Below, piece after piece: positions 48,741-60,348 of a DNA stretch of 64,000 bases. Made by a program: the position numbers and the translations under genes. Source of the DNA: an uncultured Verrucomicrobiae bacterium. GTDB lineage: Bacteria > Chlamydiota > Chlamydiia > Chlamydiales > Rhabdochlamydiaceae. The stretch is from assembly GCA_963818965.1 (NCBI GenBank), contig CAWFUG010000002.1, positions 32,001-96,000 of the forward strand, written 5' to 3'. A model generated the notes under the pieces. It had not been told where the DNA came from. It saw only the letters and a program-made list of their open reading frames with translations, and ran no database searches. Position 1 is the stretch's first letter; every line of letters begins with the position of its first letter.

Positions 48741-48929
48741 ATGTCCACTTCAGCTATTGGAAATCAGATTATTTTTAATTTTGCTTGGCAAGGCCCTAAC
48801 ACAAAGCACGGAGGGATAGCGAATGATGGCTTGAGTCCACGATTAATCAACTCTGTGAAGAATTTAAAGAGGATTGCATACGACAGGCAGGATCCTAGGA
48901 GTATGGATCCACTGCGTCAGTTACAGTAG
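48741..48929 (+). CDS. Small hypothetical protein
   Basis: 62 aa with AGGAG RBS; converges on and overlaps the end of the fifth precursor. Confidence 0.35.
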   Translation: MSTSAIGNQIIFNFAWQGPNTKHGGIANDGLSPRLINSVKNLKRIAYDRQDPRSMDPLRQLQ

Positions 48930-49222
48930 TCTGGAGAACTGCAGCCGCTTCCACCGGGGGGACCTATGGTAGCGCCGGCTGCGATCTTCAATAAGGTATC
49001 TTCAGACATTTCGCTTTCAGGTTTTGACGGCAAATTGAGATGGATCACCTTATGCGTGCTTTCGTGAATTTCAACATGCAGCTCTTTTGGTAATGAAATC
49101 CCTTCAGCAACTAGAACTGCTTTAGGGTTTTCCAGCAGTTTTTTCTTAAATGCAGGGTCGCTTCATGCCTTGGCAATGATTTTTGCCCATTTCTTTTGAA
49201 ACTCCTCTTGATGGCTTATCAT
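48917..49222 (-). pseudogene. Fifth NHLP-leader RiPP precursor with Trp20 TGG>TGA
   Basis: MISHQEEFQKKWAKIIAKA*SDPAFKKKLLENP...LLKIAAG-ATIGPPGGSGCSSPDYCN; stop at 49163-49165; RBS GAGGA. Confidence 0.9.
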
Positions 49223-57472: not shown

Positions 57473-60348
57473 CCTCTGCCATCGTGCAAAAAATTTTAAG
57501 CAACGGAGTGGAGACTCAGGTGCCTCCTAACCAGTCGATCTCCCTGTCTGATCAGGACACAGTGGTATTCTTAGAAAAGGGATCGGTCAATCTCTTTGCC
57601 ATTGAAAAGAAAGAGGGTCATCCCGAAGGCCTACGCACACTCATCACGACCCTTGAAGCCCCAACGCCGTTATTCGACTTTGTACTGCCACAAGATGCCC
57701 GCTACGCCATTCTCGCAATTACCGAGCAATCTTCTCGCCTCTTTAGCATCCCCCTAATACAGATCGAAAAAGAGATCGAAACAGACCCCACCTTTATCAC
57801 TCCTTGGATCAATCAACTCGCCTCCATCTACAAAAAAGAGAGCTGCTCAAAAAGCCCCGTCTACATCACTGCCCTTCAAGAAATTCAACTCCAACCAGAG
57901 ACACCCCTGGCGACACTACGCGCGAATACTCACGAAGAAAAGAACAAAATCGATTGGCTCCAAATCGAAGGAGAAGAGACCTCGTTTTTGGATTACCCTT
58001 CTCTCACAATCCCCAAAGGCCCTTTCCCCCTCACCTATACGGCATGGATCAAAAGTCCTACAGCGACCAAAGTCATAGCGGAGGCGCTCCCCAACAACTG
58101 GAAAACAGGGCTTTCCCATTTACACCAAGTGATCTACTCCTATCTCTCTTTGCGCCGGGAACTCGACAGCGCTGAAGCGAAAATTTTAGCAAAAAAACGA
58201 TTTGAAAAAGAGGAGAGTGAAATCCGCCACTCCCTCGAAGAGATGATCTCTGTCTTAAACCCCCTCGATTCTATCGCAACCCCACAGAGTTCTGACCCTC
58301 TTTTAGAAGCGTTTCGTCTCGTGAGCTCATCTCTTAAAATCCCCTTTATACCTCCACAAGAGCTCCCCCCACAAAAAAACGTCCTTGAACACGTCAAAGC
58401 GATCGCAGAGGCCAGCTCGATCCGTTACAGGCGCGTCCGATTATCGGGCACTTGGTGGAAAAACTTAAGCGGCCCCTTGCTCTCTTTTTATGGCGAGGCG
58501 CTGCAGCCCGTTGCTCTCTTAGAAACGAGATCGGGACACTACGAAATGGTAGATCCAGTGACACAGACGCGCACACGAGTCAATGCACAAATTGCAGCAG
58601 ACTTGGCCAAAGTGGGATTTTCTTTTTACCCCGCTTTCCCAAATGGACTGCAAAAAGGAAAAGAAGTACTGCGCTTTTATCTCAAACACCATGGAAAGGA
58701 ATTTATCCCTCTTTTTTTCTACAGCTTTATCGCTGCGCTCATCGCCCTTTTCCCGCCTTTAGCGATCAAAATTTTATTCAACAATGTCATCCCGAATGCC
58801 GATACCTCTTTATTACTCCCCATCACTGCGTCTCTTTTTTTGGCAGCTTTGAGCTCGTCTCTCTTCTTCTTGTTCCGCTCTCTTTCAAGCGCTCGGATCG
58901 AAGGACAAGCCAGCCAACTCCTCCAAACAGCCCTATGGGATCGTCTACTCAAATTGCCCACCTATTTTTTTCGCCGTTACACTTCTGGCTCGCTCATTTT
59001 ACATGTCATCTCCTCCGATCGGATCCGCGCTCTTTTAAGCGGCAATGCCTCCCGCGTCCTCTTCTCAGGCCTCTTTTCCCTCTTTTACCTCATCGCCATG
59101 GTAGCTTACGCCCCTATCCTCACCCTCATTAGCATCGGGATTCTTTTTTTGAGCATCCTGCTCAGCATCTCCTGCCTTGTCCTCTATGTAAAAATGCGCA
59201 GAGAATTTTATCAATGGGAGACGAAGATCCACTCCTTTGTGACCCAAATACTCTCTTCGATCGGCAAGCTGCGCATCGCAGGAGGTGAAAAAAGCGCTTT
59301 TTCCCACTGGGCTAAAGACTTTGCCCAGTACCAAAAAATAGCGTTCCGCTCGCAGTATGTGCAAAGCATCCTCTCCAGTCTCAATTACGTGCTGCCCTTC
59401 ACGCTCTATTTCGCCATTTTCCTCTACATGATCAAAAAAAACCCCGATCTTTCTATCGGCTCCTTTCTCGCCTTCAATACCGCCTTTATCAGCCTCTACA
59501 TGGCCATCATCGATCTCAGCAACACACTCTTTCGCATGGCTCCGATTATCCCTCAATGGGAAAGGACTAAAGTCATCATTCAAGAGCCTTTAGAGGAATT
59601 AAACGAACCCAAAGATCCCGGCGTTCTTCTAGGAGAAATCTACGTCGATGAAGTCTTCTTCAAATACGCGCCAGAGGACCCTTACATCCTGAGCAACATC
59701 ACCCTCAAGGCTAACCCAAAAGAATGCATCGGCATCGTCGGCCCTTCAGGCTGTGGAAAGTCGACGCTGCTGCGGCTGCTGCTAGGCTTTGAAAAAGCGA
59801 CGAGTGGTGCCATTTATTACGACAATAAAAACAGCGATCCCTTCTCCACTCATGGATTTCGCAAACAACTCGGGGTCGTCTTACAAGATGAGGGGATCAT
59901 CGCCGGATCGATTTACGACAACCTCACCTGTGGCGGGCTTTACACCCAAGAGCAAATCCTCAGCGCTCTTGAAAATTCAGGACTGGCAGAAGACATCGCC
60001 GCCCTGCCGATGGGACTACACACCTACCTAGCCGTAGGAGGCTCCACCCTCTCAGGCGGGCAAAAACAACGCCTCTTGATCGCAAGAGCTCTCCTGCCCA
60101 AACCCAAAATCCTCCTCCTCGACGAAGCGACGAGCGCTCTCGACAACCGCAACCAAGAAAAGGTGCTCTCCTGTATCGACCAACTCGACGTCACGCGCAT
60201 CATCATCGCCCACCGCTTGACCACGATCAAAAACGCCGACCGGATCTACGTCATGGAACGGGGGCGCTTCGTCCAAGTCGGGACCTACGAAGAGCTCGCC
60301 TCCCAACCTGGTTTGTTTGCGCTGATGCTCGAGCGCCAGCGTCTTTAA
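57469..60348 (+). CDS. Second NHLP bacteriocin ABC exporter, without active peptidase
   Basis: Long N-extension, RRVRLSGTWW, GPSGCGKST, LSGGQ, LLDEAT. Confidence 0.9.
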   Translation: MTSAIVQKILSNGVETQVPPNQSISLSDQDTVVFLEKGSVNLFAIEKKEGHPEGLRTLITTLEAPTPLFDFVLPQDARYAILAITEQSSRLFSIPLIQIEKEIETDPTFITPWINQLASIYKKESCSKSPVYITALQEIQLQPETPLATLRANTHEEKNKIDWLQIEGEETSFLDYPSLTIPKGPFPLTYTAWIKSPTATKVIAEALPNNWKTGLSHLHQVIYSYLSLRRELDSAEAKILAKKRFEKEESEIRHSLEEMISVLNPLDSIATPQSSDPLLEAFRLVSSSLKIPFIPPQELPPQKNVLEHVKAIAEASSIRYRRVRLSGTWWKNLSGPLLSFYGEALQPVALLETRSGHYEMVDPVTQTRTRVNAQIAADLAKVGFSFYPAFPNGLQKGKEVLRFYLKHHGKEFIPLFFYSFIAALIALFPPLAIKILFNNVIPNADTSLLLPITASLFLAALSSSLFFLFRSLSSARIEGQASQLLQTALWDRLLKLPTYFFRRYTSGSLILHVISSDRIRALLSGNASRVLFSGLFSLFYLIAMVAYAPILTLISIGILFLSILLSISCLVLYVKMRREFYQWETKIHSFVTQILSSIGKLRIAGGEKSAFSHWAKDFAQYQKIAFRSQYVQSILSSLNYVLPFTLYFAIFLYMIKKNPDLSIGSFLAFNTAFISLYMAIIDLSNTLFRMAPIIPQWERTKVIIQEPLEELNEPKDPGVLLGEIYVDEVFFKYAPEDPYILSNITLKANPKECIGIVGPSGCGKSTLLRLLLGFEKATSGAIYYDNKNSDPFSTHGFRKQLGVVLQDEGIIAGSIYDNLTCGGLYTQEQILSALENSGLAEDIAALPMGLHTYLAVGGSTLSGGQKQRLLIARALLPKPKILLLDEATSALDNRNQEKVLSCIDQLDVTRIIIAHRLTTIKNADRIYVMERGRFVQVGTYEELASQPGLFALMLERQRL

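Follow-up and report, generated by a model that had tools for sequence, protein, structure and literature searches.

The window, i.e., the whole 64,000-nucleotide stretch of DNA analyzed (contig CAWFUG010000002.1, positions 32,001 to 96,000), very probably carries a functional gene cluster for linear azol(in)e peptides with nitrile hydratase leader peptide (NHLP, proteusin-type) leaders in an uncultured chlamydia. The azole-peptide cluster occupies 48917–60348, as read from the listing of open reading frames (ORFs) and from the NCBIfam and Pfam scans; all coordinates are window positions unless prefixed with a locus or genome code (e.g., G000:C2, L116). The genes present, the families to which they belong, their conserved motifs, their coupling in operons and the recurrence of the cluster in the phylum are all observed. 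Every family of the cluster (TIGR03793, TIGR03604, TIGR03882, TIGR03605, TIGR03794, TIGR03796 and TIGR03797) scores above its curated NCBIfam cut-off, and the two modifying enzymes and the peptidase match the solved structures of MusD/LynD/TruD, CyaGox and 6mpz. An earlier note on this DNA had proposed a complete NHLP-leader cluster for an azol(in)e-type peptide made on the ribosome and modified after translation (RiPP) with a dedicated exporter, and these scores and matches bear the proposal out; its gene list, coordinates and order agree exactly with the ORF listing and the family scans.

Cluster layout and precursor peptides

On the minus strand, the genes follow the order precursor A, precursor B, precursor C, SagB, precursor D, the E1-like/YcaO fusion and precursor E. 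On the plus strand, divergent from this precursor/enzyme operon, HlyD is followed by a C39-peptidase ATP-binding cassette (ABC) protein and a second ABC protein. The features are listed below, with family scores in bits and, where given, the cut-off after "vs".

48605–48656, unstranded: hairpin at the left cluster boundary (inverted repeat I2), with a perfect 24-bp stem, 100% complementary, and a 4-nt loop
48917–49222, minus strand: precursor E, NHLP leader plus 18-residue core ATIGPPGGSGCSSPDYCN; in-frame TGA at codon 20; six-frame TIGR03793 match of 75.9 with one TGA inside
49248–51503, minus strand: fused cyclodehydratase, with a winged-helix domain of the RiPP recognition element (RRE) type, an E1-like domain and a YcaO domain; TIGR03604 254.7 vs 219.25, TIGR03882 113.3 vs 36.9, PF02624 and PF21084
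51485–51781, minus strand: precursor D, NHLP leader plus 15-residue core SCDYSYDSGACNVNQ; TIGR03793 82.7
51851–53188, minus strand: SagB-type flavin mononucleotide (FMN) dehydrogenase with a ThcOx-type N-terminal domain; TIGR03605 172.5 vs 78.4, PF22767 and PF00881
53185–53463, minus strand: precursor C, NHLP leader plus 9-residue core AGYCPNSIQ; TIGR03793 74.0
53483–53767, minus strand: precursor B, NHLP leader plus 11-residue core ATAGGCACWGH; TIGR03793 72.6
53814–54086, minus strand: precursor A, NHLP leader plus 7-residue core AGFVTLM (no Cys, one Thr); TIGR03793 74.2
54087–54179, unstranded: divergent intergenic region of 93 bp between the precursor/enzyme and export operons, with presumed promoters
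54180–55331, plus strand: HlyD-type periplasmic adaptor; TIGR03794 181.1 vs 156.2
55328–57472, plus strand: C39-peptidase ABC exporter; TIGR03796 950.4 vs 853.3, PF03412
57469–60348, plus strand: second ABC permease/ATPase without a recognizable peptidase; TIGR03797 743.3 vs 709.4 over residues 276–957

Start/stop overlaps of 4 nt exist between precursor C and SagB (GTGA), between precursor D and YcaO (ATGA), between HlyD and the first ABC gene, and between the two ABC genes. The precursor D/YcaO overlap holds if YcaO begins at its sixth codon, and this ATG at 51486–51488, which overlaps the precursor D stop, is more probably the start of the gene. Shine-Dalgarno (SD)-like motifs are situated ahead of all five local precursors, including an AGGAGG 5 nt before the start of precursor A. 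At the left boundary, the hairpin lies between the precursor operon and a convergent gene for a 764-residue protein and may act as a bidirectional terminator; its 24-nt arm has 30 genome occurrences at no more than 2 mismatches, which marks it as a dispersed palindromic repeat. The promoter scan remained at chance level (11 sites versus 10.8 expected), while terminator-like sites numbered 22 versus 13.6 ± 3.5, a figure left without interpretation. As the earlier note had stated, the ORF list and the NCBIfam and Pfam scans contain no lanthipeptide, radical-SAM or obvious immunity gene within the cluster; a LanC search of the genome itself gave no match, but its controls were silent too.

The four intact local precursors (A–D) score 72.6–82.7 bits with TIGR03793 against a cut-off of 50.9, and the six-frame translation of the genome yields seven matches, all above this cut-off, one of them with an internal TGA. 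The five local precursor genes form one 270-nt repeat family, with 69–86% identity to the reference copy. Their alignment has a mean column identity of 79% and is conserved through the IAAG codons, beyond which the genes are unalignable. With Ala-Gly at positions −2/−1, the end of the leader conforms to the double-glycine consensus, and it is directly preceded in 7/7 precursors by the motif [L/I/V/M]SE[E/K/D]xL (LSEEKL, ISEEAL, VSEKTL, etc.). The leader of precursor D aligns with that of MprE7, an NHLP leader of solved structure (8tb1), with an E-value of 7.9e-14. Furthermore, the precursors (90–98 residues) align to two separate segments of the nitrile hydratase alpha chains of approximately 200 residues, and the segment skipped by this alignment presumably holds the metal site. 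With TIGR01323, the precursors reach 37.6–45 bits against a cut-off of 249.85; hence, they are not working nitrile hydratase alpha subunits.

Two of the seven genomic matches are orphan NHLP precursors at G000:C2:15449–15745 and 16191–16481, located on the same contig approximately 65 kb from the cluster. Their leaders end in IAMG and IAAAG, and their cores are QTNPGSNTPTEGRIS and CWTGGTESSGNG. The neighboring genes at G000:C2 14400–15404 and 12868–14397 are a Fic-domain gene with an HPFxxGNGR motif (NF046030 82.6 bits, below the cut-off) and an EmrB-type efflux pump of the major facilitator superfamily (TIGR00711 254.5 vs 230.2), and no modifying enzyme lies near the two orphans. Since the fused cyclodehydratase is the sole TIGR03604 match in the genome, the orphan precursors, if modified, would be modified by this enzyme. 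Across all precursors, the cores are 7–18 residues long with 0–2 Cys each; Cys is found in 5/7 cores (4/6 of the intact ones), and every core contains at least one Cys, Ser or Thr.

All five local precursors claimed in the earlier note are present, but the one at 48917–49222 is not intact. Codon 20 of precursor E (49163–49165) is TGA, whereas the other four local copies have TGG (Trp) at this position, and precursor E is thus broken, a pseudogene as assembled. No RNA run was among the sequencing runs listed as holding parts of this DNA; four DNA runs (X1–X4), all of them metagenomes of soil and peat, gave small shares (0.06–0.15), in contig pieces of 151–338 nt at a depth of 2–4; these pieces are mostly at least 99% alike, and none of them covers the TGA codon.

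Modifying enzymes, export system and proposed pathway

The cyclodehydratase is similar over its full length to MusD (7u58, E 1.8e-159), LynD (4v1t) and TruD (4bs9), with E-values ranging to 2e-152, and its domain order of RRE, E1-like and YcaO is that of LynD/TruD/MusD. The residues of the YcaO motifs CEALER and ELVERD are invariant in 11 aligned homologues. Judging by these matches, the enzyme would form azolines from Cys, and possibly from Ser/Thr, with ATP. SagB aligns with CyaGox (5lq4/8pz5, E 1.7e-74) and is predicted to oxidize the azolines to azoles. Both enzymes can therefore be assigned, by homology, to the cyanobactin type (MusD/LynD/TruD and CyaGox).

The same homologues, which are the best solved ones, raise the alternative of cyanobactin-like macrocyclic products, or of peptides with azolines only, instead of linear azole peptides, and the nearest neighbor of the chlamydial YcaO group is a cyanobacterial clade, with weak support (79). 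Such products are very improbable. The enzymes resemble LynD/TruD/MusD and the ThcOx-type CyaGox as full-length closest solved homologues; unlike in cyanobactin pathways, however, the ORFs of 48917–60348 all fall into other families and include neither a subtilisin-type protease or macrocyclase of the PatA/PatG kind nor a PatE-type precursor or other macrocyclization machinery, and the C39 domain is the sole protease, to which leader removal is assigned. Moreover, an NHLP leader with a double-glycine-type end and a C39 peptidase-exporter predict simple leader removal, and the presence of the SagB oxidase predicts azoles.

The C39 domain of the first ABC protein (PF03412, 115.5 bits) aligns with the double-glycine protease 6mpz at an E-value of 9.6e-41. 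The Q..CG and NHF motifs are matched, with QMEAVECGAA and NHFLV in the window protein versus QMEALECGAA and NHFVV in 6mpz, and the Cys and His of these motifs are presumably the catalytic residues. The first ABC protein thus probably cleaves the leader and exports the core. Four loci of the OEP/TolC type exist elsewhere in the genome, as the earlier note had expected for TolC.

The second ABC protein possesses a 275-residue N-terminal extension (57469–58293), modeled by AlphaFold (mean predicted local distance difference test score 76.8) as two barrels of the cyclic-nucleotide-binding type followed by a long helix. In Foldseek, this extension retrieves regulatory subunits of protein kinase A and CRP with E-values of 2e-7 to 1e-5, a probability of 1.00 and 8–17% identity, and the model is best described as a tandem cyclic-nucleotide-binding fold. 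The extension is kept in three chlamydial homologues at 24–35% identity. A C39-like domain was also sought in the same protein: residues 268–417 gave a BLAST E-value of 1 against the C39 domain, and Atlas yielded leads at 0.83–0.85 only, so that no degenerate peptidase domain is proposed.

Taken together, these components allow the chemical steps, the cleavage site and the export route of the linear azole peptides to be proposed, the chemistry with good confidence as far as homology can carry it. The paralogous precursors would share a common 83-residue structured, nitrile-hydratase-like leader and differ in their cores of 7–18 residues. Through its hydrophobic-(X)4-Leu motif, the leader would dock on the E1-like/YcaO fusion at the winged-helix RRE, and this enzyme would cyclodehydrate the core Cys (perhaps also Ser/Thr) to azolines in an ATP-driven reaction, and the SagB flavoprotein would convert the azolines to azoles. 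Subsequently, the first ABC protein would use its C39 peptidase domain to cut after the leader-terminal AG/GG (IAAG|), and the short peptides would leave the bacterium via HlyD, both ABC proteins and a TolC-type channel whose gene lies elsewhere. Their biological role may lie in antagonism, signaling or host interaction.

Provenance and recurrence in the phylum

The assembly comprises 2.24 Mb in 12 contigs, and the cluster is situated mid-contig in a contig of 186 kb. The tsp-rpsL-rpsG-fusA genes lie 17 kb from the cluster, with a CT441-type tail-specific protease, Tsp (chlamydia-specific model NF051464, 753.2 vs 700 bits), adjoining rpsL-rpsG-fusA. The genome also encodes three full-length and one partial TLC nucleotide transporters and an Hc1 histone-like gene (54.8 bits). 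Among the best 120 fusA relatives listed, organism names are given for 14, of which 12 are chlamydial and two are "Verrucomicrobia bacterium"; the named chlamydial matches (Chlamydiota/Chlamydiae bacterium, Rhabdochlamydiaceae bacterium, Parachlamydiales bacterium and Candidatus Rhabdochlamydia) show 83–89% identity. The chlamydial identity of the genome, which the earlier note had also asserted, is supported by the Tsp, the TLC transporters, Hc1 and the fusA relatives, and its position is probably near the Rhabdochlamydiaceae.

Two features could suggest that the cluster is foreign to the chlamydia, whether through contamination in binning, through chimerism of the contig or as an island acquired very recently: the "Verrucomicrobia bacterium" label on some close homologues, and an assembly of 12 contigs with an estimated contamination of 1.72%. 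Against this stand the mid-contig position close to tsp-rpsL-rpsG-fusA and the predominance of chlamydial names among the fusA matches. The tetranucleotide distance of the cluster from the genome mean is 0.0097, versus a median of 0.0093 over 426 windows, 44.6% of which are as far or farther, and its GC content is 48.9% versus 47.5% for the genome (5–95% range 44.1–50.3%). No tRNA, flanking direct repeats or transposase borders the cluster, the sole tRNA being at 26969–27043. Simultaneously, a 61,766-bp contig of a second assembly joins an identical fusA with an identical YcaO truncated at 461 residues. Homologous clusters exist in single-contig genomes of the same family, and in the tree described below, the 18 chlamydial or unlabelled YcaO rows fall on one side of a branch. 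A foreign source is accordingly extremely improbable; a chimera, which the earlier note had named as a danger to its proposal, and a recent foreign island are ruled out by composition, flanks (fusA included) and the second-assembly contig.

The distribution was scored in a sample of 401 genomes of the window's phylum, 400 of which were scored, with G005 left out; the counts include the genome of the window itself. The NHLP precursor model TIGR03793 has a match at E ≤ 0.001 in 52/400 genomes and exceeds the cut-off in 39. TIGR03604, the cyclodehydratase model for thiazole/oxazole-modified microcins (TOMMs), has a match at E ≤ 1e-10 in 32/400 and exceeds the cut-off in 18, and 13 of these 18 genomes contain an NHLP precursor, in each case within approximately 5 kb of the enzyme. 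Among environmental chlamydiae, clusters of this kind are fairly common and not rare; the rarity implied by the earlier note does not survive these counts.

Mapping of the relatives by BLAST with the window proteins gave 13 distinct loci (14 rows, as L115 repeats L070). The order precursor(s), YcaO, SagB is found in 11/13 loci and the full HlyD/ABC1/ABC2 trio in 5/13; L076 stops at a contig edge, and L112 has no SagB within 20 kb. The leaders of the relatives end in GG, AG or GA, and their parsed cores are all no longer than 20 residues (19/19), with a median of 12 residues and a median of 2 Cys. Very short cores as a chlamydial peculiarity were considered and ruled out: non-chlamydial cores include RCCC and LCCCW, and 18/25 parsed non-chlamydial cores are no longer than 20 residues, a rough figure given that the leader-end regular expression failed on 22/47 non-chlamydial precursors. 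In two other genomes of the window's family, 12 NHLP matches per genome occur mostly in tandem arrays (G099:C1:1851416–1857538 and G031:C3:264996–276278). These arrays adjoin an unfused YcaO, scoring 117 and 112 bits against the TOMM cut-off of 219.25, and probably belong to a different NHLP pathway type within the same family.

A quick LG+G4 tree was built from 88 fused-YcaO rows; L115, six alignments of less than 600 residues and seven rows that repeat longer loci were left out, and L025 gave no row. The window YcaO and two unlabelled metagenome proteins, with 65% and 62% identity, form a group (support 100), which is joined next by four chlamydial rows, L073, L113, L069 and L070 (support 100). 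The chlamydial label comes from the title for L073 and from a coded phylum genome as the source for L113, while L069 and L070 coincide with loci of such coded genomes. One group unites 14/15 chlamydial rows with three unlabelled rows, supported at 89 in the Shimodaira-Hasegawa-like approximate likelihood-ratio test, and all 18 chlamydial or unlabelled rows lie on one side of a branch with a support of 76, so that a single chlamydial YcaO group of all 18 rows is neither shown nor rejected. The chlamydial group contains a mixture of family codes, which makes losses or within-phylum transfers of YcaO likely. The phylum tallies and the tree together suggest that the azole-peptide system is an old trait that recurs in chlamydiae, as opposed to a stray import.

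Several observations weigh against a functional azole-peptide cluster. One of the five local precursors (E) is disrupted by the TGA. Precursor A and the first orphan precursor have no Cys, and heterocyclizable residues are few in the cores, so that some cores may be exported unmodified. SagB is located upstream of YcaO and the precursors are interspersed, unlike in all 11 relatives with both enzymes. In addition, the assembly is 87.85% complete, and Pfam is blind to the cyclic-nucleotide-binding-fold domains, with no match in residues 1–284 of the second ABC protein. The replacement of a conserved Trp codon by a stop and the rearranged gene order, together with the same-genus genome G355 (89% complete, 220 contigs), which has no NHLP or YcaO match, could indicate that the cluster is a remnant, in decay within a reduced endosymbiont genome, and no longer yields a product. 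This is unlikely: the large genes are all intact and full-length relative to the family models and the solved homologues, the translational-coupling overlaps and SD-like motifs are retained, and four local and two distant precursors are intact. Meanwhile, G355 has the flanking pgm and rlu on its contig C89, which ends approximately 570 nt past rlu; because this syntenic contig ends there and the genome is fragmented, the missing match is uninformative.

If the cluster is functional, a broader and rather doubtful picture may be drawn. A long-resident chlamydial NHLP lineage might have diversified its cores by precursor duplication, decay and dispersal, export might be gated by the cyclic-nucleotide-binding-fold sensor, and the peptides might act within the host cell or inclusion on co-infecting bacteria or on the host. 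If true, this would provide a molecular basis for the symbiont-mediated protection suggested for some chlamydiae.

Relation to known systems and flanking regions

For a long time, chlamydiae were regarded as intracellular bacteria with a stripped-down metabolism and no secondary metabolism. A survey published in 2022 altered that view at the level of antiSMASH counts: according to its available text, biosynthetic gene clusters, including those of the LAP (linear peptides bearing azol(in)es) and RiPP-like classes, are widespread in Chlamydiae and absent from Chlamydiaceae (Dharamshi et al. 2022, PMC9666466). Its Data S10B, produced with antiSMASH, has LAP or LAP/RiPP-like entries for Ca. Neptunochlamydia vexilliferae, Chlamydiae bacterium 1021942-13 (Rhabdochlamydiaceae) and O_S4.2_123 (Sororchlamydiaceae), and also RiPP-like clusters with polytheonamide as the best MIBiG match (PMC9666466). 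The authors of that survey, like the earlier note, speculate, in the text available, on peptides aimed at co-infecting microbes or the host, and its main text contains the words azole, nitrile, YcaO and bacteriocin 0 times, leaving the cluster type as a table entry only, with no analysis of its architecture, precursors or phylogeny (PMC9666466). The cluster listed for O_S4.2_123 is locus L073, with a YcaO and a SagB each 45% identical to those of the window and an NHLP precursor alongside; compared with this LAP/RiPP-like entry (PMC9666466), the window cluster is a different, rearranged, multi-precursor member. The novelty implied by the earlier note is therefore lost, since the architecture recurs in relatives, the chlamydial enzymes group in the tree, and LAP/RiPP-like clusters appear in the portion of the 2022 data available (PMC9666466). 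Full-text searches found no literature pairing chlamydiae with a nitrile hydratase leader peptide or with YcaO plus NHLP, and the string "chlamyd" has 0 occurrences in Cox et al. 2015 (PMC4603692). The cluster type is thus listed in the phylum but not studied, and its biosynthetic logic is textbook. The window provides a clean, complete and compact example, with enzyme and transport genes and seven precursors, that could be expressed in a heterologous host and so offers a route to learning how an obligate intracellular bacterium uses the azole peptides that it exports.

The closest characterized system appears to be MprC/MprD/MprE, encoded by a methanotroph. In this system, as the available text describes, ten NHLP precursors are converted by a single YcaO, MprC, together with a single flavin oxidase, MprD, the two leucines of an L(X)4L motif, which may be Val or Phe, are needed for turnover, and MprC prefers Cys (PMC12455567). 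Like mpr with its MprE1–E10, the chlamydial cluster has many NHLP precursors with structured leaders of approximately 81–83 residues and variable cores, one RRE-bearing YcaO, one flavin oxidase and a hydrophobic-(X)4-Leu leader motif. Unlike in mpr as there described, the chlamydial cores are shorter (7–18 residues, 0–2 Cys), the export trio is adjacent, and the host belongs to an obligate-symbiont lineage. This likeness is drawn from the MprE7 leader match and the published description.

The NHLP-TOMM class and its TIGR03794/TIGR03796/TIGR03797 export cassette were defined in 2010 by Haft, Basu and Mitchell, whose text, in the part available, also reports distant precursors for other NHLP systems and mentions no chlamydiae, Victivallis being the only organism of the "chlamydia group" that it names (PMC2887384). 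The window cluster shares with this class, as there described, a leader that ends in a Gly-Gly-type motif, a core that is hypervariable, a fused cyclodehydratase-docking protein and several paralogous precursors, part of which lie far from the enzymes, and differs in a leader end that is Ala-Gly, not Gly-Gly, in 5/7 precursors. Nostatin A, an azole-containing proteusin of Nostoc, likewise has an NHLP leader, a cyclodehydratase and an oxidase; unlike the window peptides, its 30-residue core is accompanied, in the description available, by epimerase, LanM-like and methyltransferase tailoring, and these tailoring genes are missing here (PMC11583998).

Several features of the flanks were also recorded. 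A 397-residue protein at 37302–38495 has weak matches, below the cut-offs, to an spr1629-type repressor/antitoxin (79 vs 335 bits) and to the Wolbachia WO male-killing protein Wmk (44.8 vs 300 bits). To the right of the cluster, the region 60381–62753 (40% GC) contains three genes without a Pfam or NCBIfam match, i.e., one for a Cys-rich protein of 131 residues and two consecutive genes for proteins of 301 and 337 residues, none of which has a homologue in the loci of the relatives that were mapped. The same flank also holds a 39-nt inverted repeat at 61782–61872. To the left, an arm of the inverted repeat at 45312–45442 occurs 13 times in the genome at no more than 3 mismatches, a second dispersed palindromic repeat near the cluster, and short copies of this region are found on many G355 contigs. 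The 764-residue protein left of the cluster (46293–48587) matches the inverse-autotransporter beta-domain PF11924 at 32.9 bits and has a repeat-rich C-terminal part. In G202, a homologue with 45% identity (L116 1702–3666) is situated approximately 3.8 kb upstream of the cluster's precursor.

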